64,000 nt of DNA, taken from NCBI GenBank assembly GCA_047967505.1, contig CM106538.1; one strand, written 5' to 3'. Below are positions 2,849 to 50,708 of the stretch, piece after piece. The notes under the pieces are model-generated. The model made no database searches and was not told the origin of the DNA. It saw only the letters and a list, made by a program, of their open reading frames with translations. Within the stretch, counting starts at the first letter, position 1. Every line of letters begins with the position of its first letter. A program made the position numbers and the translations under genes. This DNA is from Dipteris shenzhenensis (lineage: Eukaryota).

Positions 2849-3329
2849 AGAAATGAGAAATTTTAGGGTTTTGAAGTGCTTTATATAGTCTTATTAAAAG
2901 CACTTTAGGGTTTTTATTTAATGGCCTTTTTAAATTAATGTTTTTTTAGTGCACTCACCCCCCCTCCCCCCGTCGGTCGTTCGTCGCTAGTTCGATAATG
3001 CTAGATCTTCACCACCCTCCCTCCCAACCCACCCACCCCTCCACCCTGCCATGTCACACATGCACATGCACATGCAACTCTGCAATTTCCAAACAAATTT
3101 GTGATTTTTGGAATATGTAATTGACTCAAAATAGTGTTACCTTTATCCATCAAACATTTTACATTTGGGGTTCTCTTATGACCCAACGCCTCCCCTATCT
3201 GACTCTATGTTGCAACCAAAGTGCAACCCCTTGACTCCTTGTTGAGGACTTCCCAGCAGCACATCTCCTTGTCTTCTTGACATGTTGAACCACTTTTGTG
3301 AGACTTGAGACCTCTACCTTGTTGCATTT

Positions 3330-5366
3330 GAGAGTCCTGGCCTATAGACATCTATAAAACATGTCGAACATTTCATGTAGTGCATTGCTTTGCGCAATAC
3401 CACCCCCATGCCTTGTATTCTTGAAGTAGTCTTCCTTTGCTCTATAGTGCGATTTCTCCATTCCTTGAGTATTCCAAATGGATAGAGGGCCCCATGGCTC
3501 CACAAACCACGGTGGATGTGCATAAAGAATATGCTAAACATAAAATAACTCAAGTTTAAATCTCAAAATTTCAACCTAAGGAGATTACTATGTAATGTGT
3601 AATATGTGACTCCCCCCATGCTTCTACCATCAATGATATGAAATCTCCCAATGCTATCTTGAATCTATCATAATAAAGCTCATCTATTTGACCTTGTCTA
3701 AGCAACTTTATAAATGCATCAAGCTTTTGTCCACAATTTTGCTCTCAAACTAGCAATTTGCAGAGTTCTCTCCAAAACCCACTTCAATGACTCGTGGCAC
3801 TCCTTTGGGGTCTCAAAGGCTACAAGCCACCATATGTCCTTTTCAGATTGGTGGACTCAGAACACCTACTCAACTTCCTCATCTCCTTGAGCAAAATCCA
3901 AGGCGTCATTCCTAATAAAAATGCTCACCCTCTCTAGCTTGTGCTCTTTTACCAGTTGAGCTTCATCCATTTTTATAACAAATACTAGCTTGCCATCTAT
4001 ACAATGAAAGAGAAATACAGTAAGGATATAGAAATGAGAAGAAGTAAAGTTGAATGCGAAGAGGGAATTTCTTTTACCTTCTTCTCCCATCCCATAGAGT
4101 TTGACCATGGCTCTCTGCAAATTCTCTACATCCATGTAAACATTATTGAAAGCATTCATCTCAAACGTTTGGATGGAAGATTTCTTTTCTTTTCCAAGTC
4201 ATTGTGCCACTTACACAATAGTATTCTCCAAGCTTTTCTTTAGCACATTGGTTTTTTTTTTGACTTGCAAGCCTTACAGACTAGGGTGTTGGCAATGGCA
4301 TTATAGATATCTTATACTTTTCCTCCATAGCAGACTTGAAAAGTTTAAAAACATAGTTGTAAGCTTCACAACTTACACCAGTAGCATCACAAGCTCCAGG
4401 TACCTCCTTTGCTTGCATATGAGGCCCTTGAAGTCCTTCATTACCTTTCTAGCAACTAGTTCACCTAACCCTATTTAGGGTCCTTCAACACTTCAATGAC
4501 ATCACTTGGCTTTATTAAACTTCTTAGAACATATGAAGGATCACTATCATCCATTTCCATTGTTCCCATCACATCCTCCATGAGATTCTTAAAGTAGAAT
4601 ACAAATGAGTCTGTGGAAACAATGCAACACCATGAATATTTTGGAGTAAGAAATTTCATTGAAAAATTGGGGAACTAACCTTGCAGCTTGAACTCTCCTC
4701 TTTTGGGAACCACTATTGGTTGACAATGCATCCATAGATTGCAGTTGCCTTTTCCTCTCCTTCAGTCCCAAAGGTGTTCCCTTCAACTTTTGTACTCGTT
4801 CTATCGACTTCCCTCGTTCCTTCTCCACATCACATTGAACTTGGCCATACATAGACATTTCCAAATCTTGTTTGCTTTTAGCGAGCTTATGGATTGATTC
4901 TTCCAATTCTTGTCACTCCAAGTCCAGTGCACGTGCTTTGTCACTGAGTTCCTTGTTTTGCAATTGGACATCATGCAAACTATTATGCATTGCCACAATA
5001 AGCAATATTTCTCAAATGTGCAAGTTCTTCTACTTGGGCTCTCTGCACCTAGCTTGCTTGCATAGCCAATGTTTGAGAATGGTTCAATCGATTGCAATAA
5101 CCAAGCAATCCAACATGTCTATTGCCAACAAACTGAGCAACATCATGCAATATATGAAAAGGAGGACTCTTTTGGGTGGCGGGGTCTAGAGGATACAAGA
5201 TTCGATCCACCCAAAGATCAAGATGCTTCTTCCCTTGCAATTGAAGAATGTGGAGCACACTTTGAGGAGTTCTACAAAATCCCAAATGGCATGTGCTTGC
5301 GTATTCAGCCTCCAGTTGTTGTAAGTTCACATGGTACTTGTTGGATATGTCCTTGAATGGTGCCAT
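3330..5366 (-). pseudogene. Spliced RAG1/Transib-like (CMC group) DDE transposase pseudogene
   Basis: Minus strand gives AWGESHITHYI|HILYAHPPWFVEPWGPLSIWNTQGMEKSHYRAKEDYFKNTRHGGG across a GT-AG intron (3534-3588). This resembles RAG1 [42 protein letters not shown]. A candidate first catalytic D lies in LVFVIKMDE (about 3965). Multiple stops; the middle part appears to be missing. Confidence 0.6.
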
Positions 5367-5419
5367 GAGTACTCAAGGAGAGGTATCAGTGATGTAGGCT
5401 GAAATGTAGGGAAGAGATG

Positions 5420-5850
5420 GCAAAGATGGAGCAGAGAGAGAGAGAGAGTAGCAAGGAAGAGGGGGGACGAGAAGTAGGTTAGGGCAAGAGGAAGAGGAGG
5501 AGGAGAGTAGGACGGCTGGTGTAGAAGGGATGGAAGGAGCTACTGCAGAAGGGAGGAGGAGGGGAGAGTTGCTACAAGAGGGAGGAGGAGGGGAGAGATA
5601 CTACAGGAGGGAGGAGGAGAGGAGAGGGAGTAGGGCAACTAGAGAGGGAGGGGAGAGGACGGAGGGAGGAGGAGGATCATAAAGGAGTAGGAGGAGGGGA
5701 GAGGGAGGAGGGAGGAGTGGGAGCAAGACGGAGGAGGGGAGAGGAGGAAGGGGGGAGAGGGAGAGGGAGAGGGAGAGGGAGAGGGAGGAGGAGGGAGGGA
5801 GGTGGAGAGAGAGGAGGGAGGGGGAGGGAGAGAGAGAGAGAGGGAGGTAG
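5420..5850. repeat. GA/GGA-rich low-complexity tract
   Basis: (GA)n, (GGAGAG)n and GGAGGA runs. Confidence 0.9.
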
Positions 5851-5884
5851 GGAGATTTGAAAATTGAAATTCAAATTTAAAAAA

Positions 5885-8825: not shown

Positions 8826-9179
8826 TGTGAAGAGAGTGGGAGAGAAGGAAGGAGTCTCACTAGTAGCTTTATCACATACACAATGAGGGAATAAACACAA
8901 AGGTGGGGGCTGAAAAATAGTTTTCCTCTTCTTAGTTGTGAAAGCCAAAAGAACTCTAAGTACAAAAGAATAGGTGAACCCTATATGTGGGTCTCAAACC
9001 AAACCTAGCTAACTAAGGTGGCATACTAATTGAGCCACTAACTAGAGTACATAAAGATAGCTATCATCTAGCTATTATTCATGGGCAGTGTACCAACCGC
9101 ATTTGCAGCTAACAAATATGTGACATAAATGCACAACGGTTACCCTGGCATATCACAAGTGGAGCTCAATATATCAACA
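8826..9179 (-). repeat. LTR copy A (about 354 bp)
   Basis: TGTGAAGAGAG...TCAACA; highly similar to 13359-13712 and 16852-17209. Confidence 0.9.
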
Positions 9180-12100
9180 CTCCCCCTCGAGCTCAATCCC
9201 AGGTCTCTGAACTTGCGTAGCTTCTCTATACCCAATGCCTTCATGATTATGTCAGCAACTTGATCCTCTATGCTGACATAAACTAGATCAATAAAACCTA
9301 CTAGAACCTTCTTCTGCACATAGTGATAATGCACCTCAATGTGCTTTGTTCTAGCATGATAGACTGGGTTATTTGCTAAGTGTATACTGCTCATCTTGTC
9401 ACAATAAATGACAAGTGGCCCATCTGTAGACTGATGCATATCATAAAGTAGCTTATGCAACCAAGTTGCCTCACATACAACCATTGCTACACCCCTGTAC
9501 TTAGCCTTTGTGCTCGACAAGACAACTTTAGCTATTTCTTGCTGCTCCAAGTGACTGCAGCACTCCCAAAAGAGAACACATATCCACTAGTAGATTGTCT
9601 ATCAGAAATACTACCAGCCCAATCAGCATCAGTGTATCCTACATCCAAATGCGGTTTCCTTGAAGCCTGCATAAAATGACTTACCAAACCAATATCATAG
9701 CTCAAATCTAGCCTGGTAATAGTCATATAAATCAAACTTCCTACTATGCATCTGTACATAGTAGGGTCTTCCAGAAGCTCACCTGCATCTGTGCTCGGCT
9801 TCACATTCTGCTCTAAAGGAACTGAAATAGGCTTACAGCCTATCATCCCATATTTGGATAGAATGTCCAATCCATATTGCCTCTGCAAGAGCGATATCCC
9901 ACTTGTGGATCTAATCACATCAATGCCCAAGAAGTAACACAGCTCTCCCAAATCCTTCATCTCAAACTTCTGCCTCAATAGCACTTTCACATGAAGGATA
10001 TCTTCATCACTGTCACCTGTGATGATCAAATCATCAACATAAATGACAAGTAGCATAATACCTGTCTCTGTTTTTCTCACATAAGATGAAAAATCTGCCT
10101 TGGAAATCTGAAAGCCAATAGTGACACTTTATTGTCCTATCTTGTCAGACCATGCTCTGGGTGCTTGCTTCAAGCCATACAAGGCTTTCTTCAATCTGCA
10201 AACAAAACAGCATGAACATAATCTGGTGGCTGCTTCATATAGACCTCTTCCTGCAAATCACCATGCAAGAAAGCATTCTTTACATCCTTCTGATGTAAAG
10301 ACCATCCCTTTGATTTAGCCATAGCAATGACTACTCTTACGGTTGCCATCCTTGCAATTGGACTGAATGTTTCTCATAATCAATGCCATATGTCTATGCA
10401 TACCCCTTGATAACTAATCTTGCCTTGTATCTGTTCACAGAACCATCTGCATTGTGCTTTACCTTATAAACCCACTTGCAGCCAATTGCATTCTTGTCTT
10501 TAGGCAAAGGCACCAATTATCATGTAGCATTTCTTCCAAGGCATCCATTTCTTCATCCATGGCTTTCTCCCATTTTTCTTTTCCCATGGCTTGCTCAAAA
10601 GAAGTGGGTTCTGGTTCATGTATCACTTTGACCATATAGGCATAGTGAATGGCTATAAATCCATCATATTTCAGCCTATCCACAAAATACCTAGCTCTAG
10701 TAGACGTGTGCAAAATAGGCTCACTACTAGGTGCTCTCAAAACATCCCTTGTCTTCCTTACTCCAGGTGTAACAATGGAAAGAATACCCAATTCATCATC
10801 AACGCTATGCTCTGAGCCACTAGATTCACCATCCACATAAGAGTGACCTGCATTCACATCAACCATGGGCTGATCTACTTTCTCTTTTCCTTTTCGTAAT
10901 ACTTGCATACCACTATCTGCATTGCTTGGAGGAGATCCTCTTGATCTCAATCTACCTATCCATGGCGAAGTATGTGAACCACTTCTAGAAGACACTATAG
11001 GTCCACCAATATTTTGTGATTGCTGCTATGAATTCTGTGCAGCATTACCATTTTGTGCATCTACATCATCAATCACATTTACTGGTTTATACTAGCTGCT
11101 CATCTCATCAGAAACATCTCTGCTCACTATAAACTAAGGAAAACAAGGGTTATAGCATCTATACCCTTTCTGCTGCAAAGAATAACCAATAAAGATGCAC
11201 TTCTCAGCTTTTGGATCCAACTTGGATCTCAACTCATCTGGCACATGAACATAGGCAATGCAACCAAAAACTTTCAAATGAGAAATATCTGGTTTCCTAC
11301 CAGTATACCTCTCCTCTGGTGTCACGCCATGTATTGTTGCACTAGGAATCGTGTTCATTACATAGACTGTTGTGGCAACTACTTCAGCCCAATAATAATG
11401 TGACAGGTCTTTTTCATTGAGCATGGCATGAGATACCTCTCCAATATGCCTATTTTTCCTTTCTATAAGTCCATTTTGTTGTGGGGTATGACTGCATGAT
11501 TATTGCTGCTTTATGCCGTGCTCCTGCAGGAAACTTGCAAACTCATTTGAGAGGTACTCTGCCCCTCCATCTGACCTTAGGCATTTTATTTGTAGGCCTG
11601 TTTCTTTTTCAACCATAGCTTTAAAAGCTTTGAAATGCCCAACACTTCACTTTTCTTTTTCATAAAATACACCCAAACTTTTCTGCTATAGTCATTAATA
11701 AAAGTGACAAAATAATGACAGCCTCCAATAGATGTAGCTTTAGTATTCCACACATCAGAGTGAATCAATTCCAATGGCCTCTTACTCTCTTGAACATGTC
11801 TAGGAAATGGTTTCCTTGCCTATTTTCCAAATTGATAGGCTTCACATACCTTATGGATTTTTGCAGTTACCTTGAACTTAGGCAATCCTGTAACAATATT
11901 TTGGGCCTGCATTAATTTAAGTCGCTGTACATTAACATGACCAATGCATTTATGCCAGATATCAATATCGGCAACTACACCGGTCCCATGTGCAAACATT
12001 GCTACACTCAACTCAGGCATGTCCACATCCAACATAAACATCATGCCCTTCTTCTTCACTTTTGCTATCAAGCAACATTTATTTTTCATATTCTCAACAA

Positions 12101-16851: not shown

Positions 16852-18325
16852 TGTGAAGAGAGTGGGAGAGAAGTAAGGAGTCTCACTTGCAGCTTTCCCA
16901 CATACACAATGGGGGAATACACACAAAGGTGGAGGCTAAAAACAATTTTCCTGTTCTTAGTTGTAAAAGCCAAAAGAACTCTCTCTCAGTACAAAAGGAA
17001 TAGGTGAACCCTATATGTGGGTCTCAAACCAAACCCAGCTAACCTAGGTGGCATACTAATTGAGCCACTAACTAGAGTACATAAAGATAGCTATCATCCA
17101 GCTATTATTCATGGGTGGTGTACCAATCGCATCTGCAGCTAACAAGTCGGTGACATAAATGCGCAACGTTCACCCTGGCATATCATGAGTGGAGCTCGAT
17201 ATCTCAACACTCCCCCTCGAGCTCAATTCCAATTCTTGCATACCAAGCAGGTCTCTGAAGTTGCGTAGCTTCTCTATGCCCAATGCCTTCATGAATGTGT
17301 CAGCTACATGATCCTTTGTGCTAACATAAACTAGATCAATAAAACCTACTAGAACTTCTCCCGCACATAGTGATAATGCACCTTAATGTGCTTTGTTCTA
17401 GCATGCTAGACTGGGTTATTTTCCAAGTGTATACTGCTCATGTTGTCACAATAAATGACAACTGGCCCATTTGTAGACTGATGCATATCATAAAGTAGCT
17501 TACACAACCAAGCTACCTCACATGTAGCCATTGTTGCACCCTTGTACTCAGCCTCTGTGCTCGACAAGGCAACTGTAGGCTATTTCTTGCTGCTCCAAGT
17601 GACTGCAACACTCCCAAAAGAGAACACATATCCACTGGTAGATCATCTATCAGAAATACTACCAGCCCCAGTGTATCCATGCAGCTGTATCTGAACCCCA
17701 GTCTCATAAAATAGTCCATACTGCAATGTGGACTTCACATACCTCAGTATGTGTCTAGCCACATCCAAATGCAGTTTCCTTGGAACCAGCATAAACTGAC
17801 TTACCAACCCAACATCATAGCTCAAATTTGACCTAGTAATAGTCATATAAATCAAACTTCCTACTATACATCTATTCATAGTAGGGTCTTCCAGAAGCTC
17901 ACCTGCATCTGCGCTCAACTTCACATTCTGCTCCAAAGGAATTGAAATATGCTTACAGCTTGTCATCCCATATTTGGATAGCATGTCCAATCCATACTGC
18001 CTCTATAAGAGCCATATCCCACTTGTGGATCTAATCACCTCAATGCCCAAGAAGTAGCACAGCTCTCCCAAATCCTTCATCTCAAACTTCTGCTTCAATA
18101 CCATTTTCACATGAAGGATATCTTCATCACTATCACCTGTGATGATCAAATCATCAACATAAATGACAAGCAGCATAATGCCTTTCTCTGTTTTTCTCAC
18201 ATAAAGTGAGAAATTGGCCTTGGAAATCTAAAAGCTAATAGAGACAAGATACTGTCCTATCTTGTCAGACCATGCTCTAGGTGCTTGCTTCAAGCCATAC
18301 TAGGCTGTCTTCAACCTGTAAAGAA
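16852..18325 (-). mobile_element. Ty1/Copia copy C: 3' LTR 16852-17209, PPT, RH and part of RT; 5'-truncated
   Basis: Same LTR and PPT as copies A and B; YVDDL; breaks off within RT at about 18325. Confidence 0.95.
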
Positions 18326-18329
18326 ACTC

Positions 18330-19103
18330 ACCTTCCCCTCAGCCTGCCCCTCAACCTTCCCCTCAGCCTTCCCCTCAGCCTTCCCGTCGGCCTTCCCCTC
18401 CCCATGAGAGCACTCCCCTGATCGAGCAAAATATATTTGAGAATCTCCCTTCCCTTCAGCCTCCCCCTCCCCATGAGAGGACTCCCCTGCACAAGCAAAA
18501 TGTATTTGATAAACTCCCTAATATAGAGAGGCTTCCTGAGGGCCAACAAACTACTAGGAAGATCACAATCTTCCTCTCTTAGTGAAGAGGGTAAAGCAGA
18601 TGCCGAGGAATCCCCATCCCAAAGAAGGACAAAGCTCAAGACATCCGTGAGAGGGGGATTCAGAGGAGGATCAACATAAAGAAGAGAAGCGTAAGAAATT
18701 CAAGGCAGACAGGAGGCCATCGAACCATGTTCGGGTACCTGTAAAGCCTCCACCAAGAATCAGGAAGCCATACAAAACAAAGGCAGGAGCACGGGTCCTA
18801 AGGTAGATCAAACAGATGTAGAAGACCACTGACAACCTAATCTCCCGTGCTCCCTTCCAATGTGTGGTATGGGAGATAGCACAAGGATACAAGGACGATG
18901 TGTGATTCAGCACAGGATCTATGGGGGCACTCCAAGAGGCTACGGAGCAAGTGACCATTGCTTTGTTTGAGGACACCAACTTGTGTGCCATCTATGCAAA
19001 GTGTGTCACGATCATGGACAAGGGACATGGCTTTGCCGAAGCGGCTATGGGGTTACCCAAGGTTGAAGCCTGAGATTCTCTTACAGCCCACCCTTATGAC
19101 TTA
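18330..19103 (+). pseudogene. Divergent histone H3-fold pseudogene with a long Pro-rich/charged N-terminal extension
   Basis: From 18762: [84 protein letters not shown](+1)[10 protein letters not shown], colinear with H3 [50 protein letters not shown]...[30 protein letters not shown]. Not listed in the ORF track because of the stops. Confidence 0.9.
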
Positions 19104-28189: not shown

Positions 28190-30946
28190 CATAACCTGCT
28201 GCTGAGTCTCCGAGCGCCCTGATCCTATGCAAGTATGTAACTGACTGAAATGCTGCATCTAGCGCTAGGGGTGTAGCTCCGAACTCTGCGAGCATAATCT
28301 GATGCGGTACCGTGGCTTCGCTCTGATCAATCTGGAGAACATGATGATCTGTAACCTCTCTACTCATCTCCAATCTGCAACACTGAGATCTCCTACCCAA
28401 AAGGGGCTAGCATACATGGCTGTAGGTCTCACCAGTGTATCGAAAAGTAAGGACTTCGTGTCGGGATGCTGAAAATGTGACTGTGCACATTGCCTCTCGA
28501 GAAGAGCCAAGGCGGCATACCCTCTACTGATCCTATCTCGTGCTGCATGCGTCATGGTGAAGACTGGACCTCTAAATGTGGCACCCAAATATGTATACTC
28601 CCTGACTAGCTCCACCTCCTACCCATCAAATGTGAAAGAGAACTCGCCTCTCCTATAAACCTGGTATGACGTGTTGAAGACCATGACTTTGGTCTTCCCA
28701 AGGTTTACAGACAACCCTCTGTCCTGACAAAAGTTGTGGAGTGCATGGAGATGTGCCTGTAAACCCGGTTGGGAGGAAGAAATAAGAACCACGTCATCTG
28801 CATAGAGGAGAATCGGTATCATGGATCCTACCAGTAAAGAACCTGTACCACCCATCGTCTATATGTACATCTCTAACTCATCGATATAGAGACCAAAGAG
28901 TGTCGGAGACAAAGGACACCCCTGCTTCACCCCTATCATACTGCGTACTTCCCCCGATAGCCCCGCCCGTGTCCTGACTCTACCTGTGACTCTCTCATAC
29001 AAGGCCATGATCGCCCATTGAATCTCCCCACTGAATCCCAAGTCACGAAGTCGCTGGAAGAGTCTGAAACGCGGCACAGTGTCAAATGCCTTTCTGAAGT
29101 CCACGAAGCAACAATAGAGCCGTTGCTTACGTGACTTGGCCTCCTCAATCAAAGCCCTGAGTGTGAAGATATGATCTAGAGTTGAGTGCTCTGCACGAAA
29201 TCCTGCCTGCCCTCTAGCTCTCATACCTGTCGCCTCGGCATGGTCATTTATATGTCCTTCTAGAATGGTCGCATAAATCTTGGCCATGACATGGCCAATC
29301 ATAATGGTCCTATAGTTCGATGCCTCCAAAGGATCCCCCGACTTGTGTATGGGTACTATAGTATTTTCTAGCCAACTAGGTGGAAGACCTGTACAAATGG
29401 ACTCGTTAAAAAGACGGGAGAGGACTATAGCTAAGGCATCAATCCCATGGATTACATACTCCGCTTGCAATCCATCATGGTCCTTAGCTCTCCTAGTCTT
29501 CAAACGATGAACTGCTGCTCGGACACTACTGGATGAGAATAAGGCAGAGGAGGTGGGTCTAGGCATATGGGATAAGTCGATCTGTGGCTGGTCTGGAATA
29601 TCATATAAAGTGGAAGTATAGGCAAGCCAAACCTGCGGGTCTGTAAGAGGAGTTTGAGATTTCAAGTGAAGGAATTTCTTCTAGAATTCCTTGGAATCAC
29701 AGCTAAAAAGTAAACTTCTCAGCTCCTCCTCATTCCGGGCTAGAAATTGGCGCTTTTTGCGTCACACCAAACGCTTGTTACAACTCTTCTTGGTCTCAAT
29801 GAGGAGGGGAGACTTCTCCTGTGTCTCAAGGCAAAGCTTCCTGTGGAGTTCTTTACACTCCTCATCATACCATCCATTACAAGGCACAAGACTGACTGGT
29901 GGAGGACTGGATGTGTGGCAAGTGACGAGGAAGGACTTGTGGGCTGCCGAGATGATGGAGGTATGTACAAGGTCCCACCGATCCTGTGTGGAGGATAGGG
30001 CATCGAGAAGGTGCGGATGGAGAAGACTACTCGGGTGCTGGCTATAAATATCATTGAACTGGTGGTCAAAATGAACCTCATAGTATGGCTGACGCTCATG
30101 ATGTCTAGAAGGGGGGGCATGAGGAATCTGGGTAAGAATAAAGTGCAGACATGCATGATCCGCTCAAGGCATAAGAGGGTCGACTGTGAGGTTATGTACA
30201 AAAGGGATTAAAGTCGGGGGACCCAAGACGTAATCAATGACGCTCGTACCACCACCTGCGAAGGGAAAACATGTGGCTGTGGATGAATGCGGCCACTGTC
30301 GAAGTCCATTATAAATGACCATGCCATGCGATGAGAGAAGCTCCAATAGGTGATGTCCCTGATCTGTCACCTCTACCCCTCTATCTGAAGATAAGCATGG
30401 AAAACTCTCATCTGGGGCAGCTAGAACTTTAAAGACTGGATCCTCAGCAAAGTCCAAAATCTATGCCTGTCTGTCTGATGTCCTCGTGTTGAAGTCTCCT
30501 AAAAGGATGACCTCTCCGCAGCGTGAGTACTCCAATACATCGGCTGACAAATCCTCAAAAGGTGACTGTCCTGGTCCATCTGAGGCATAACGAGTCTGTC
30601 TCAGGGGAAAGTAGCATACTGCAATAAAAAAGTCTCTCAGGCGGGGTCTTCTGATCCGTACCCAAAGATATCTGGCCTGATGGTCTCTCCTCACGACTGT
30701 GAATATCGATCTGAGATGCTCTCTATAAAGAACTGCCACAACGCCAGATCCTCTGACTCCTCCTGATCGTCTAGTCTGCTGTTGAAAGACAAACTCCCAG
30801 GCATACTCTGTCACCTGTGGCAAGCCTCTCTCTGGGCTCTCATGGGTCTCTGTAAAGAAGACGATGTCCTGATCAAAAAAGGCCTCTCGTAAGTTGCCAG
30901 GCTGAGCTGTGAGGGAACCATTACAGTTCCAAACTGTGAAACTCAA
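28190..30946 (-). pseudogene. LINE ORF2 (endonuclease and reverse transcriptase)
   Basis: Consecutive ORF pieces separated by single TAG/TGA stops (30458-60, 28856-58, 28616-18) and a few frameshifts. Confidence 0.9.
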
Positions 30947-33222: not shown

Positions 33223-34373
33223 TCACAAGTCTTGGAGCTGGAAGTAGCCCACAAGCTCATTCCAGCATTCACAAATCGATTGGTGCTTGCAGAGTGCATC
33301 GCTTCCTTCCATCATCAGCCACAAATCATGATTAATGTGATGGTTGACTACTTCGTCAGCAGATTGTTCGTGCGTGCCTGTGGTTATCAGATTGCTGCAT
33401 CCAATATTGATCTGTTCCTTGGAGTCGTGTGCGCAGAAATTAGCACTGATATTGCTGCCGCAGAACGTTAATTCGCTAGACGGTTCTGCAATCTGCACCT
33501 GCTTAGTTGATGAATCGGTGCTCGTTGCTACCGTTATTTTATTGGTTATGCGATCGATCCACATTGCCCATTCCGATGCTATTGAGACTTGATTCACGGT
33601 CCTTGCGGAATTAATTGCTAGGGCCTCTTTCGCATTGATCTGGGTGTCCGGAGAGATAATCCACTCTCCAGAAGTACCCTCAGCATCAAAGAACGATGTG
33701 AACACAGTTCGCAGCACGGGAATCTTCGCATGACAAACAGGGTTCATCCCTCTGCTGCCATACTCTTCTTTCTCAATCGCGCATGGGGTTTCACTCTTAG
33801 TTGATTCTGTTTTATCGATGCTAATTGTCGTCCTCTGTTTCTGTTCTTGTCTCCTCATGAAAATGTGCCACATGTTCTTCACATCGTTGTCTGTTCTCCC
33901 CACAAGATGCGCAGCTATCTTGGTCCATCTGTTGTGAGAAAGAACATTTGAGGCAGCGATGTAGCAGTATTCATTGAGTGTCATCAGTTAAAAGTGGAAT
34001 CTCATCAATCATAGCAAGTACACTCTTCCATACCAATACCTGTTTCCATAGAGTTTTTGCAGCTCATATACATGCATCGCTTCCTCCATCGAAAATTTCC
34101 CACGCTTTATGCCTGGTCTCAAGTGGTTCATCCAACGTCTCCTACAGCTCTTTCCGCATCTTCCCAGACCTGCTCAGCATCGCAACTGTAAGCCATTTCC
34201 AAAGGAACCTATTCAATCGGCTATGACAGAGATATATATATATATCTAGCAAGGATCCTCTCACCCGCTTTACGAGCTATGTCGCTCCAAGTGAGGTGAG
34301 TTCGCGGCTCGGCCAGGATTCTCAGCAGCTTTTCATCCTCTTCGGGTGACCAAAGAGCTCTCATGCTTACCAT
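33223..34373 (-). CDS. R2R3-MYB transcription factor, 3 exons (34373-34265, 34169-34040, 33928-33223), 314 aa, apparently intact
   Basis: [17 protein letters not shown]...[38 protein letters not shown]...[29 protein letters not shown] introns at the canonical R2R3-MYB positions with the typical 130-bp exon 2; 945-nt open frame. Confidence 0.93.
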
Positions 34374-47642: not shown

Positions 47643-48950
47643 ATGTAGCATTTTCTTTTTGGTAGAATTTGATTAAATTTTAGTTTATAAGAAAAATTAT
47701 AAAATGCATTTTAATGTTTTTTTGAAATTTATGAATTACGAGATTTTTTATTTAAAATGTGAAAATTAAAATTTTTTTTTAAATAGAGCTTTTTTTAGTA
47801 AATAAAAAAACGTTCATATTAATAATTATAAAATATTTATAAATTTGAAATGCATTTGTATTTTTTTTTTTTTTTAAATTACGACATTTATAATTTAAAA
47901 TGTGAAAATTTTAAATTTAAAAAACGTAATTTAAAATTTTAGTTTATAAGAAAAATTATAAAATGCATTTTAATGTTTTTCTGAAATTTATGAATTACGA
48001 GATTTTTTATTTAAAATGTGAAAATTAAAATTTTTTTTAAAATAGAGCTTTTTTTAGTAAATAAAAAAACGTTCATATTAATAATTATAAAATATTTATA
48101 AATTTGAAATGCATTTGTATTTTTTTTTTAATTTTTAAATTACGACATTTATAATTTAAAATGTGAAAATTTTAAATTTAAAAAACGTTTAATGAGGCAT
48201 TTTTTATTCAAAATGTGAAAATGTTCAATATTTCTGTTTTTTTTATGTAGCATTTTCTTTTTAGTAGAATTTAATTAAATTTTAGGTTAAAAGAAAAATA
48301 ATAAAAAATTTCTAAATTTCAAATGCAATATAATGTTTTTTTGAAGTTTATGAATTACGACATTTTTTATTTAAAATGTGAAAATGAAAATTTTTTTTCA
48401 AAATAGAGCTTTTTTAGTAAATAAAAAAATGTTCATATTAATAATTATAAAATATTTATAAATTTGAAATGCATTTGTAAAATTTTTTTACATTTTTGAA
48501 TTACGACATTTATAATTTAAAATGTGAAAATTTTTAATTTAAAAAACGTTTAATGAGGCATTTTTGATTCAAAATGTGAAAATGTTCTATATTTCTGTTT
48601 TTTTTATGTAGCATTTTCTTTTTGGTAGAATTTAATTAAATTTTAGTTTATAAGGAAAATTATAAAAAATTTCTAAATTTATAATGCATTTTAATGTTTT
48701 TTTGAAATTTATAAATTACGACATTTTTTATTTAAAATGTGAAAATGATTTTTTTTTTTTAATAGAGCTATTTTTATTAAATAAAAAAACGTTCATAGGA
48801 ATAATTATAAAGTATTTATAAATTTGAAATGCATTTGTAAATTTATTTTTTTTTTTGAATTACGACATTTATAATTTAAAATGTGAAAATTTTTAATTTA
48901 AAAAAGTTTAATGAGGCATTTTTAATTCAAAATGTAGAAATGTAAAAATT
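47643..48950. repeat. AT-rich tandem repeat, ~360-bp unit, about 4 copies (first two shortened)
   Basis: ATGTAGCATTTTCTTTT at about 47643, 48245 and 48607; the AATAATTATAAAATATTTATAAATTTGAAATGCATTTG block occurs four times. Confidence 0.92.
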
Positions 48951-48970
48951 AGGTTTTTAAAAATCATCTT

Positions 48971-50708
48971 TAGGAATGGCCACTAGTTGAGGTGGATTGC
49001 CCAACCAAAATAGGAAATGAAGATATAAGACATTTTGTATAAGACTCACTCAACTTATCAAATTAATACACAAACATAAACCTACTAGTCAACTATTGGA
49101 GTTGGACATTAAAGATTGACTAGTGACATGGTTGGTGACCAAAGCTTGAAGTTGACTAGACACTTTGGGACAAGCAAGTTCTTTAGAAGGAAACTAGGTT
49201 TAAGCTTGGGTAATCATCCCTAATATATTGGGACATTACTAATGATAAATCATCCTTTAACTATTTGGCAATTAGTAAGGATCGATTCTACTAGGAAATA
49301 TGTTGAAGGCATATGTCCCCTATTAGTCAATAGATTGATTAGACTAAGCATGCATGATAAGGCTATAGCTTGGAAATGCCTAGATAGTGGCTTAGTCCAA
49401 ATCTTCAATATCCCTTAAGAAGACATGAAATAGTGGCTTAGACCTTAAGAAGACATGGAATAGTTTGCAAATGTCTAATTCTTCTAAGTTATGCATAGAC
49501 TCTAGCATAACTGAGAAAAGAATATTACAAGATTGAGAATATTTGGATGGGTCTTCAAGAACTCGAATATTACGGTCTGTGCCTATAAACTATTTGAGAT
49601 TCTTATGCTATCACTATGGCATGCTTTAGATCTAGCACTTTGATCATGTTTGTTGTCTAGTTCCATAATTCATCTACTTCTCTTATATGTATAAGAAGAA
49701 AGAAATACGCCATAGAGAAACTGAAAGTTTAACTAGAATACCTAACATTCATTGCACATGGGACTCTACTGGATCTATATTCATTCCACATTCATGCTAA
49801 TATATGCAAGTGTTTTGATCAACTATAGACCTAAGTTCAACTAGAGCCTGTTAATGACTGAATCTCTCCTAATCATCCCTTAATGATCATAGATAATAGT
49901 ATGGGCCACTATAAGGATTGGTTAGGAGCTATTTTTAAAATGCCAAACTTTGAAATGAAGTCAATATTTATTGTGTTGAGGAATTTTTGTCGGGTGGATC
50001 TAGTTGAAGAGAGAAATCCATGTTGCATAACATTTGTCTGAGTTGAGCAGCCTCAAATCGACTTAAGAGAGAGAGAACTCCATAACCTTCAAGAGTCGAC
50101 ATTTCAAGCATCCCATTCCATGTTGTTTGCTACATGGCAGCTCGCCATGTGGCACACATACATCCCTTTTTGCACTGTAGGGAAACCTATGACTAATGTT
50201 AACAACATTTATCTTGTCTTTTACAAATGACTAAGATGTTTTCCCAAAAAGACTTTGTAACAATAATCACGTGAACCACCTCATAACCAAAATAGTATGG
50301 ATGCTACATATCTCCTTTCCCTCGTTGAAACTATGTCACACATGGAATGTCAACCACATGCTCAAGGAATTATATGCTAGTTTCATTGTAAGCAAGGGTG
50401 GTCTCTTTCTTGCTAGTCCAACCATAGGCAACGGTGACGCTTATTACTTGAGCTCAACCAAAATTAACATTAGTTATCGTATGCAACCCTTCCCATTGCA
50501 TAGGGACATCCAAGGATTTAATTTTCAAAGTTTTTGAATCCTCTTCTAGGGATCTTGTGCCCTTTGTTGTTGCTATGTATGTGGATGATCTCATTCCAAA
50601 ACTATTTTTACAACTAGAAGTCGAGTGAGTCTTATACAAAATGTCTTGAACCAAGTGATGATCTATAGGAATGGCCACTAGTTGAGGTGGATTGCCCAAC
50701 CAAAATAG
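48971..50708. repeat. Identical 43-bp direct repeats 1.7 kb apart
   Basis: TAGGAATGGCCACTAGTTGAGGTGGATTGCCCAACCAAAATAG at 48971-49013 and 50666-50708. Confidence 0.9.

Follow-up and report, generated by a model that had tools for sequence, protein, structure and literature searches.

The window analysed here, 64,000 nucleotides of contig CM106538.1 from Dipteris shenzhenensis, contains a transposase pseudogene that spans positions 5366 to 3174 on the minus strand. Its upper boundary coincides with the start codon of 'MAPFKD' (ATG at 5366), and tblastn homology to relatives (cited below by protein number) extends to 3174, slightly past the start at 3330 given in an earlier note made from the sequence. 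The copy is surrounded by retrotransposon debris. Its recognizable parts are as follows.

5049-5366, minus strand: N-terminal conserved segment (tblastn: P0215 3-108, P0187 11-87, P0205 9-71, P0208 12-74)
4673-4798, minus strand: basic segment beyond the coiled-coil region, 'GTPLGLKERKRQ...SGSQKRRVQAARL' (tblastn: P0187 175-216, P0205 163-204, P0215 166-207)
4477-4590, minus strand: helical segment in a third frame (tblastn: P0187 216-251)
4200-4418, minus strand: helical region resembling a DNA-binding/dimerisation region (tblastn: P0187 274-343)
3761-4189, minus strand: pre-RNase H region and first half of the RNase H domain (tblastn: P0187 349-467, P0189 152-288, P0205 341-455)
3761-3777, minus strand: internal-deletion junction (overlapping tblastn segments 4171-3761 and 3777-3583)
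3589-3744, minus strand: penultimate exon, ending '...MVEAWGESHITHYI' (ORF; tblastn: P0187 685-759, P0189 550-599)
3534-3588, minus strand: 55-nt GT..AG intron (sequence read; comparison of relatives with and without the insert)
3174-3533, minus strand: last exon, with H-x4-H, the catalytic Glu, 'TRHGGG' and the C-terminal tail (ORF; tblastn to relatives)

State of the window copy

The N-terminal segment holds 'DLWVDRILYPLDP' (5219-5181) and 'GLLGYCNRL' (5111-5085) and terminates in an in-frame stop at 5051-5049. The coiled-coil stretch that follows (5048-4799) is degraded by stops and a change of frame, and three-frame reading places the basic segment at 4673-4798 in a frame different from that of the N-terminal segment. 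The helical region at 4200-4418, whose counterpart in a predicted model aligns with RAG1 from about residue 459, contains an in-frame stop (4283-4281). In the segment at 3761-4189 the first catalytic Asp lies within 'VIKMDEAQ' (codon 3967-3965), at a column conserved in the family alignment A4; the same segment includes an 81-nt GT..AG insertion or intron (4077-3997) and stops at 3868-3866 and 3859-3857. Alignment of the window to P0187 by tblastn is colinear with one jump, from residue 467 to residue 685, and about 217 residues are missing. Motif positions in P0202 show that the deletion removed the second catalytic Asp (in 'HLAGDLKTLKC') along with the C(2)C pair and the CxxH motif, 'VHxCTLH'. 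A stop (3747-3745) stands immediately upstream of the penultimate exon, and two others (3344-3342 and 3197-3195) interrupt the last exon, where the His codons are found at 3533-3531 and 3518-3516 and the Glu of 'GMEKSH' at 3458-3456. In-frame stops number 7 in all, and the copy is frameshifted at least twice; it keeps the first Asp, H-x4-H and the Glu, and the second Asp, C(2)C and CxxH are gone. Because of the deletion, the stops and the frameshifts it is enzymatically dead: an internally deleted pseudogene, unable to make an enzyme. On its own it is ordinary genomic debris.

The earlier note had excised a 55-bp intron and read the flanking frames as one, and the minus-strand read bears this out. 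The 55 nucleotides at 3534-3588 (GTAATC...GTTTAG) form a canonical GT..AG intron, and their removal joins '..ITHYI' to 'HILYAH..WGPLSIWNTQGMEKSH' in frame. The upstream ORF (3571-3744, minus strand) ends with the residues listed above for the penultimate exon, followed by 'VISLG*', and the downstream ORF (3342-3533, minus strand) begins with 'HILYAHPPWFVEPWGPLSIWNTQGMEKSHYRAKEDYFKNTRHGGG'. In the intron-less relatives P0024, P0017 and P0046, 'THYMHILYAH' or 'THYIHILYAH' is continuous across the junction; P0008, P0012, P0016, P0036 and P0001 show a read-through insert at the same point, a position that is conserved in the family. The motif described from this region, ITHYIHILYAH followed by six residues, is real and RAG1-like in its spacing, but the spacer from 'AH' to 'WGPL' has 7 residues (PPWFVEP) rather than 6, and it is this length that yields the exact RAG1 spacing H-x4-H-x8-G-x4-W-x5-E. 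The H-x4-H..E motif is not a product of chance, since the last exon of the copy is 81% identical to the database protein P0001 (E=5e-29) and matches 41 proteins at E<=0.01.

The family, its motifs and its presumed mobility

A homology search with P0008 recovered 255 representatives at E<=1e-3, and a closing search with profile A4 added just two further proteins. Among these database matches the named family members come from ferns only, and no named moss protein was found. Full-length relatives are about 900 amino acids long and have the motif order D, D, C(2)C, H, H(4)H, E, represented in P0202 by D411, D508, C528/C531, H586/C588/H591, H761/H766 and E785; D411, D508 and E785 occupy alignment columns common to both family lineages. 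P0202 and P0208 are apparently intact full-length copies in which the catalytic and zinc-site residues of RAG1 type are all retained, and they belong to clusters (90% level) of 25 and 62 sequences, respectively. The E motif is present in 80 of 217 collected relatives, with exact RAG1-type spacing in 57 of the 80 and H-x4-H in 61, and C(2)C lies 10-22 residues past the second-Asp motif in 37 of the 42 proteins that have that motif. Where H-x4-H or C(2)C is missing, the protein is a fragment truncated at its N terminus, one of a small number of decayed copies, or a member of one divergent lineage. All five of the proteins lacking C(2)C are in this lineage. Of these five, four reach the E region and are without H-x4-H as well, and the remaining one, P0217, is a 261-residue fragment. 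The divergent lineage is intron-less and has lost both zinc-ligand pairs, and a model of its member P0117 predicts that the fold has been kept.

There is no Pfam model for the family, and annotations of large plant genomes, those of ferns included, lack it; gene predictors there join pieces of it to neighbours such as histone H3. A histone H3-like pseudogene in the window (18.65-19.07 kb) was considered as a passenger of the element and set aside; it lies 13 kb off, on the opposite strand, and is about equally close to canonical H3 (27/44 identical) and to the fern fusion proteins (20/35).

The Transib superfamily is marked by a 5-bp target site duplication (TSD) and RSS-like (CACAATG-type) terminal inverted repeats (TIRs). 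For the wider CMCT clade (CACTA-Mirage-Chapaev-Transib), the available part of Kojima (2025) gives 5'-CA..TG-3' termini and a TSD of 2-5 bp as usual, and some Transibs have TSDs of 2-3 bp according to the accessible text of a 2026 preprint, so the TSD is a variable feature. A TIR/TSD search around the window copy returned low-complexity matches only and no convincing inverted termini, and no terminal repeats were seen in the related contigs L001-L003, which were found with P0194 and are short (1.8-3.3 kb) and flankless. Because termini and TSD were not found, we infer the mobility of this element type from its copy number and decay. The missing termini, together with the conserved intron and the long N-terminal extension with its coiled coil, would suit a domesticated RAG1-like host gene, of which the window copy would be a fragment. 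We give this reading very little credence: the family consists of hundreds of diverged, fragmentary copies, with 90% clusters of up to 62 sequences and copies on at least three Ceratopteris chromosomes, and the window copy itself is internally deleted and riddled with stops amid the retrotransposon debris.

Resemblance to RAG1 in sequence and predicted fold

The earlier note had named best matches to CACTA, hAT or P-element profiles as grounds for abandoning a RAG1/Transib-like reading. The best curated-profile match of any member was instead to Pfam RAG1 (PF12940), by P0046 (E=0.0038, profile positions 553-593) and P0017 (E=0.049), both scores being under the Pfam gathering cut-off and limited to these 2 of the 60 members scanned. 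When P0046 was compared with PDB sequences using phmmer, all 15 matches at E<=10 were to RAG1 (best E=0.0024). The similarity is local, about 65 residues, and its alignment, ungapped over 35 residues, places H176, H181 and E201 on mouse RAG1 positions 937, 942 and 962. At the level of sequence the link to RAG1 thus comes from a single phmmer-matched member and a pair of weak Pfam matches; profiles A1, A2 and A3, protein P0202 and the last exon of the window copy alone had no RAG1 or Transib match among PDB sequences. Transposase_21 (PF02992) and other CACTA-associated Pfam models matched none of the 60 members at E<=1, none of the 13 longer members at E<=10 and none of the 8 ORF pieces of the window at E<=10, which matched no relevant family, and hAT, P-element and KDZ models were without a match in any of these scans. 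Language-model neighbours, taken as leads only, placed RAG1 clusters at 0.96 (203 shared features) and Transposase_21 clusters at 0.87 (121-133 features).

These searches bear on the possibility that the copy is an ordinary, divergent plant CACTA/EnSpm relic whose likeness to RAG1 is merely the general resemblance within the CMCT clade. CACTA elements are the common CMCT members in plants, and the available portion of Kojima (2025) describes C(2)C and H(3-4)H as motifs that CACTA has in common with RAG1. Nevertheless, we consider a CACTA relic improbable, given the lack of CACTA-associated Pfam matches in the members and ORFs scanned, the greater distance of the Transposase_21 clusters and an H-x4-H...E spacing that is the same as that of RAG1 throughout the 35 ungapped residues.

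An AlphaFold2 model of P0202 had a pLDDT of 75.4 overall and above 85 for most of the core (about 370-780). At E<=1e-3, all 49 Foldseek matches of this model were RAG1, BbRAGL or HzTransib chains. In VIA comparisons it aligned with RAG1 at Z 20-20.9 (454-464 residues, rmsd 4.1-4.6), with HzTransib at Z 19.3 (424 of 480 residues, rmsd 4.1) and with BbRAGL (ProtoRAG) at Z 19.1; the next fold beyond RAG1/Transib reached Z 10.1, and the P element, ISCth4 and Hermes fell at Z 7-10. Omitting the Foldseek prefilter and searching 48,161 chains left the ranking unchanged. Residues 240-847 of the model align to mouse RAG1 459-1008 and to positions 21-479 of the 480 in the HzTransib chain. The model of the divergent P0117 gave similar results (RAG1 Z 20.2, BbRAGL 18.6, HzTransib 14.9, P element 10.1), and the two modelled lineages are mutually 27% identical. 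Retroviral integrase cores can be aligned too, more weakly, which indicates an RNase H fold in the predicted structure; the earlier note had regarded the lack of such a fold as evidence against its reading, and the models contain it within a RAG1/Transib core at Z about 20. The training of AlphaFold2 included RAG1 structures. We know of no solved structure of a CMC transposase, and the fold match is therefore unable to separate Transib from CACTA, Chapaev and Mirage. As modelled, the family has the architecture of the RAG1 core, which may not be exclusive to Transib.

Placement of the family and comparison with known systems

We assign a probability of roughly 85% to the reading that the sequence at 5366-3174 is a decayed copy of the transposase of a cut-and-paste transposon, of RAG1/Transib-like DDE type and belonging to the CMCT clade, from a family of non-seed land plants. 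The results support membership of the family in that clade, nearer to RAG1/Transib than to CACTA by every comparison run. In the part of Kojima (2025) that was available, the clade comprises EnSpm/CACTA, Mirage, Chapaev, Transib, Plavaka, ESTA as well as Lanisha, and RAG1-type matches are reported for lineages other than Transib, ESTA having an HHpred match to RAG1; the placement is for this reason made at the level of the CMC/Transib group, and not securely inside Transib. The earlier proposal of a plant CMC/Transib lineage distinct from CACTA is thus supported by the RAG1 matches, the predicted fold and the lack of CACTA matches in the members scanned, but the lineage is less new than was assumed. 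RAG1/Transib kinship is rarely documented in land plants: plants were at first said to have no relatives (Kapitonov & Jurka 2005, in the part available), 39 plant Transib-like proteins are mentioned in the accessible text of Tao et al. (2022), and our literature search for Transib in ferns or bryophytes gave no usable report among the matches listed.

One alternative is that the family corresponds to Lanisha, a proposed superfamily of cut-and-paste transposons from Ceratodon purpureus, a moss (GenBank MT647524, Repbase Reports 2020; named 2020-21). The finding would in that case be the fern form of a CMCT lineage that already has a name. According to the available parts of Carey et al. (2021) and Kojima (2025), Lanisha is a CMCT lineage of land plants without a Pfam model; our family is likewise a land-plant CMCT family and has exactly the motifs of the Lanisha clade, C(2)C and H(3-4)H, and Lanisha is poorly described in the literature searched. 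Yet Lanisha is characterized as 'showing similarity to EnSpm' in the portion of Kojima (2025) at hand, whereas our family has no Transposase_21 match and RAG1 is its only sequence match, and named moss proteins are missing from its matches, an absence that repeat masking before annotation could explain. On balance we regard identity with Lanisha as rather unlikely.

A more specific suggestion is that land plants (the named hosts being ferns) have a transposon lineage of their own, placed within Transib/RAG1 or as its sister group, and not in CMC. We put this forward tentatively, as a possibility at somewhat less than even odds. If true, the RAG1-type recombinase would have a living, possibly active plant branch with complete catalytic and zinc-site residues, and the sister lineage without zinc ligands would demonstrate that the fold can outlast the zinc site. 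The recruitment of a transposase into adaptive immunity has its textbook example in RAG1 and Transib. A family in plants would extend the range over which this architecture is known, provided that phylogeny bears out three points, namely the RAG1 alignment over the His pair and Glu, the predicted match over the whole core, and the lack of a Pfam model. The family would then offer additional sequences with which to root the split between Transib and CMC, and the lineage in which all four zinc ligands have been lost together would be a natural test of the zinc site.

An intact protein of the RAG1/Transib-like type proposed here would combine helical DNA-binding/dimerisation and pre-RNase H regions with an RNase H domain bearing two Asp residues, a large insertion domain and the Glu. 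As in RAG1, a single zinc ion would be held jointly by the C(2)C pair that follows the second Asp and by the H-x4-H pair 20 residues ahead of the Glu. Homology suggests that active copies would be nicked at the element ends, with hairpins formed on the flanking DNA, and integration with a short staggered cut would presumably follow.

Plant CACTA/En-Spm elements (Transposase_21) share with the family the motif set of the clade and a plant host, but none of the members scanned has a match to their Pfam model, and the His spacing is H-x4-H in the family and H-x3-H in CACTA. Compared by description only, Lanisha is similarly a land-plant cut-and-paste CMCT lineage without a Pfam family; it differs in being said to resemble EnSpm, RAG1 being the detectable similarity of our family (Kojima 2025, available part). 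The family agrees with the CMCT clade in general in its DDE triad on an RNase H-like fold, C(2)C and H-x4-H, except for the one divergent intron-less lineage without either zinc-ligand pair. The order D, D, C(2)C, H-x4-H, E is that of RAG1, RAG1L and Transib, and the whole core of the P0202 model aligns with RAG1, ProtoRAG RAG1L and HzTransib at Z 19-21. The spacing H-x4-H-x19-E is identical to that of RAG1, and the distance from the second Asp to C(2)C is 20 residues in P0202 and 19 in RAG1, from D708 to C727. Unlike RAG1 and Transib, with which it shares about 15% identity in the structural alignments and neither of which is detected by the family profiles, the family carries about 240 additional residues at its N terminus, including a conserved 'DLW..G..YP.DP' block and the coiled coil, and its hosts are land plants.

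The window copy and its surroundings

The 3' part of the transposase pseudogene is read from two minus-strand ORFs, whose frames fuse once a 55-nt segment is taken out.

3571-3744, minus strand: upstream ORF, C-terminal part '...MVEAWGESHITHYI' followed by 'VISLG*'
3534-3588, minus strand: intron of 55 nt, GTAATC...GTTTAG, with canonical GT..AG ends
3342-3533, minus strand: downstream ORF, N-terminal start 'HILYAHPPWFVEPWGPLSIWNTQGMEKSHYRAKEDYFKNTRHGGG'

The motif frame described in the earlier note after removal of this intron is therefore correct, but the spacer from 'AH' to 'WGPL', given there as six residues, counts seven. The motif is unbroken, as 'THYMHILYAH' or 'THYIHILYAH', in the related database proteins P0024, P0017 and P0046, which lack the intron or are correctly spliced, and several other relatives carry read-through inserts at precisely the intron site. 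Thus, the intron is real and conserved. When the window copy was mapped by tblastn against full-length relatives, the matching segments were found in colinear order.

Segments of the window copy matched by tblastn (relative and residues)
5315-5085, minus strand: P0187 11-87
4798-4673, minus strand: P0187 175-216
4584-4477, minus strand: P0187 216-251
4412-4200, minus strand: P0187 274-343
4171-3761, minus strand: P0187 349-467
3777-3583, minus strand: P0187 685-759
3533-3174, minus strand: last exon, P0208 755-885

Of the limits proposed earlier, 3330-5366, the upper one holds, 5366 being the ATG of 'MAPFKD', but homology extends beyond the lower one to 3174. The homology skips from residue 467 to 685 of P0187, so that about 217 residues are gone with no remaining DNA to encode them; among the losses are 'HLAGDLKTLKC' with the second catalytic Asp, the two cysteines of C(2)C and the motif 'VHxCTLH'. 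Seven in-frame stops fall inside the aligned segments (5051, 4283, 3868, 3859, 3747, 3344 and 3197). The reading frame also changes at about 4477/4412 and at 4200/4189; these are frameshifts rather than introns, since the matching stretch of the short related contig L001 is one unbroken exon. An 81-nt GT..AG segment (4077-3997, minus strand) splits the pre-RNase H region in frame; relatives, L001 among them, lack this segment, which is an insertion or else an intron specific to the lineage.

The window copy is a dead relic with an internal deletion, part of the genomic debris. Intact members of the family would, by homology, excise by nicking followed by hairpin formation on the flanking DNA, and would insert through a short staggered cut. 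Riddled with stops and deprived of a catalytic Asp and of half the zinc site, the window copy would move, if at all, solely in trans. It shows no sign of surviving ends, and inverted termini or target-site duplications were found neither around it nor in the short contigs L001-L003, which lack flanks.

The pseudogene lies between two low-complexity tracts. One, at 2950-3050, is C-rich when read on the plus strand; the other, at 5380-5860, is purine-rich (GGAGGG type). With arms at 3006-3024 and 5790-5808 the two form weak inverted repeats, and in the relative P0003 the downstream tract also seems to follow the stop. Both tracts may belong to the UTR or to the subterminal part of the element, or be mere simple repeats. 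Repeat debris surrounds the copy, including a Ty1/copia reverse-transcriptase fragment at 9532-10128 (Pfam RVT_2, E=2.3e-19). Two minus-strand fragments, 9140-10128 and 17643-18227, seemingly belong to one Ty1/copia family and have near-identical '...IMLLVIYVDDLIITGDSDEDILHVK...' reverse-transcriptase ORFs. A proline-rich low-complexity tract (18322-18582) lies ahead of a pseudogene that resembles histone H3 and is interrupted by three in-frame stops (18651-19070, plus strand; Pfam Histone, E=1.5e-8 for 18906-19070). The four named fern relatives (Ceratopteris P0039-P0041 and Adiantum P0215) are annotated as transposase pieces fused to an H3-like domain, which could represent either a passenger gene or an artefact of annotation. 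In the window, the H3-like piece is about equally close to canonical H3 (27/44 identical) and to the fern fusions (20/35), and no link between this pseudogene and the transposase element is shown. Farther along lie a minus-strand RVT_1 reverse-transcriptase ORF, probably of a non-LTR or other retroelement (28859-29680, E=2.7e-17), a minus-strand ORF with a weak Myb-like match (33223-33987, E=2.9e-5) and a strongly AT-rich stretch (48001-50000, GC 0.247).

Family members and sequence matches

With the last exon as query, 41 of 43 candidate proteins matched at E<=0.01, the top match with 81% identity across the whole exon (E=5e-29). The relative P0008 (411 aa) retrieved 255 cluster representatives at E<=1e-3 and 123 at E<=1e-10. 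Judged by these matches, the window motif is part of a genuine gene family and no chance motif. The majority of the matches are unnamed fragments in public assemblies, and the named hosts are ferns only: Ceratopteris richardii, with three proteins (chromosomes 20, 24 and 26), and Adiantum nelumboides, with one among the family matches. Full-length relatives were found in P0202 and P0208 (898 and 900 aa), with 25 and 62 sequences, respectively, in their 90% clusters.

Pfam scans were made of 8 window pieces and 13 longer members at E<=10 and of 60 members at E<=1. No Pfam family covered the transposase family in these scans, and CACTA (Transposase_21), hAT, P, MULE and KDZ gave zero matches. 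The sole recurrent meaningful match was RAG1 (PF12940), at profile positions 552/553-593 of 653; it was found in 2 of the 60 members, P0046 (E=0.0038) and P0017 (E=0.049), both under the gathering cut-off. A phmmer search of all PDB sequences with P0046 gave 15 matches at E<=10, all of them RAG1 (best E=0.0024). The alignment runs without gaps from '..VTHYIHILYAH' through 'GMEKSH' and pairs H176 with position 937, H181 with 942 and E201 with 962 in the full-length RAG1 chain of the mouse; in RAG1, 937 and 942 are zinc ligands and 962 is the catalytic Glu. RAG1 or Transib was not found in PDB with family profiles A1, A2 and A3, with P0202 alone or with the window exon alone. At the sequence level, the signal toward RAG1 is real, yet thin and local.

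Predicted fold

P0202 was modelled from a 42-sequence family alignment, with no templates, by AlphaFold2, which has already seen structures of RAG1 (mean pLDDT 75.4; >85 for most of the core, about 370-780). All 49 Foldseek matches in PDB at E<=1e-3 were chains of RAG1, of the ProtoRAG RAG1-like protein BbRAGL or of the Transib transposase HzTransib; the next fold was the P element (E=0.014). Structural re-alignment with VIA superposed residues 240-847 on RAG1 459-1008 with Z of 20-20.9 (454-464 aligned, rmsd 4.1-4.6), and gave Z of 19.1 for BbRAGL and 19.3 for HzTransib (424 aligned of 480), followed by ISCth4 (10.1), P element (9.8) and Hermes (8.0). Over 48,161 chains without the Foldseek prefilter, Z was 17-20.3 for RAG1, 18.9 for BbRAGL and 13.6 for HzTransib, with ISCth4 (9.7) and P element (9.6) next; just 8 chains reached Z>=8. 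A second model, P0117, from a divergent lineage that shares about 27% identity with P0202 (12 sequences, pLDDT 66.6), gave in the wide search RAG1 20.2, BbRAGL 18.6, HzTransib 14.9 and P element 10.1. To our knowledge, no structure has been solved for CACTA, Chapaev or Mirage, so the fold match is unable to separate Transib from CMC.

Zinc site and placement of the family

Conserved residues in P0202 are D411, D508, C528/C531, H586/C588/H591, H761/H766 and E785. Among 217 family proteins, the second-Asp motif was present in 42, with C(2)C 10-22 residues downstream in 37 of these; the E motif was present in 80, with H-x4-H upstream in 61 and at the exact RAG1 spacing in 57. The five proteins without C(2)C (P0096, P0117, P0124, P0126 and P0217) are members of one divergent intron-less lineage. 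Four of them extend to the E region and all four lack H-x4-H, P0217 being a 261-aa fragment; P0130 and P0216, of the same lineage and extending as far, likewise lack it. Other proteins without H-x4-H are decayed copies or fragments beginning within the motif. In RAG1, C727/C730/H937/H942 hold one zinc ion, and joint loss of the two pairs is expected if both bind a single ion here as well. The lineage retains D, D and E, and P0117 models as RAG1-like (Z 20.2). These seven proteins are apparently intron-less, and the longer ones have acidic C-terminal tails.

Language-model neighbours, which are leads and not tests, were topped by RAG1 clusters (0.96; 203/256 shared features), followed by unnamed or DUF1280-tagged cnidarian and fungal clusters (0.94-0.95), and lower down by Transposase_21 (0.87; 121-133 features) and Plavaka (0.84). 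It is secure that the family is a transposase of the CMCT clade. Evidence for a position closer to RAG1/Transib than to CACTA is that sequence matches are to RAG1 only, the spacing is identical, Transposase_21 is never matched and the language-model neighbours agree; a place inside Transib proper is not established. The earlier proposal, of a plant lineage that falls within the CMC/Transib group and is separate from ordinary CACTA, is supported at that level.

Lanisha, a CMCT-clade group, was reportedly the subject of a 2020 Repbase Reports note by Maumus and colleagues. It is called a 'previously undescribed superfamily' of the moss Ceratodon purpureus by Carey et al. (2021) and in the corresponding preprint. 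Plants are described as apparently free of Transib in a statement of Kapitonov and Jurka (2005), one sentence of Tao et al. (2022) mentions 39 'potential Transib-like proteins' in plants, and Kojima (2025) reports that an HHpred match to RAG1 led to the recognition of ESTA. The family, though of interest, is thus not without precedent. It has the catalytic and zinc-site residues of RAG1/Transib and shares their predicted architecture.
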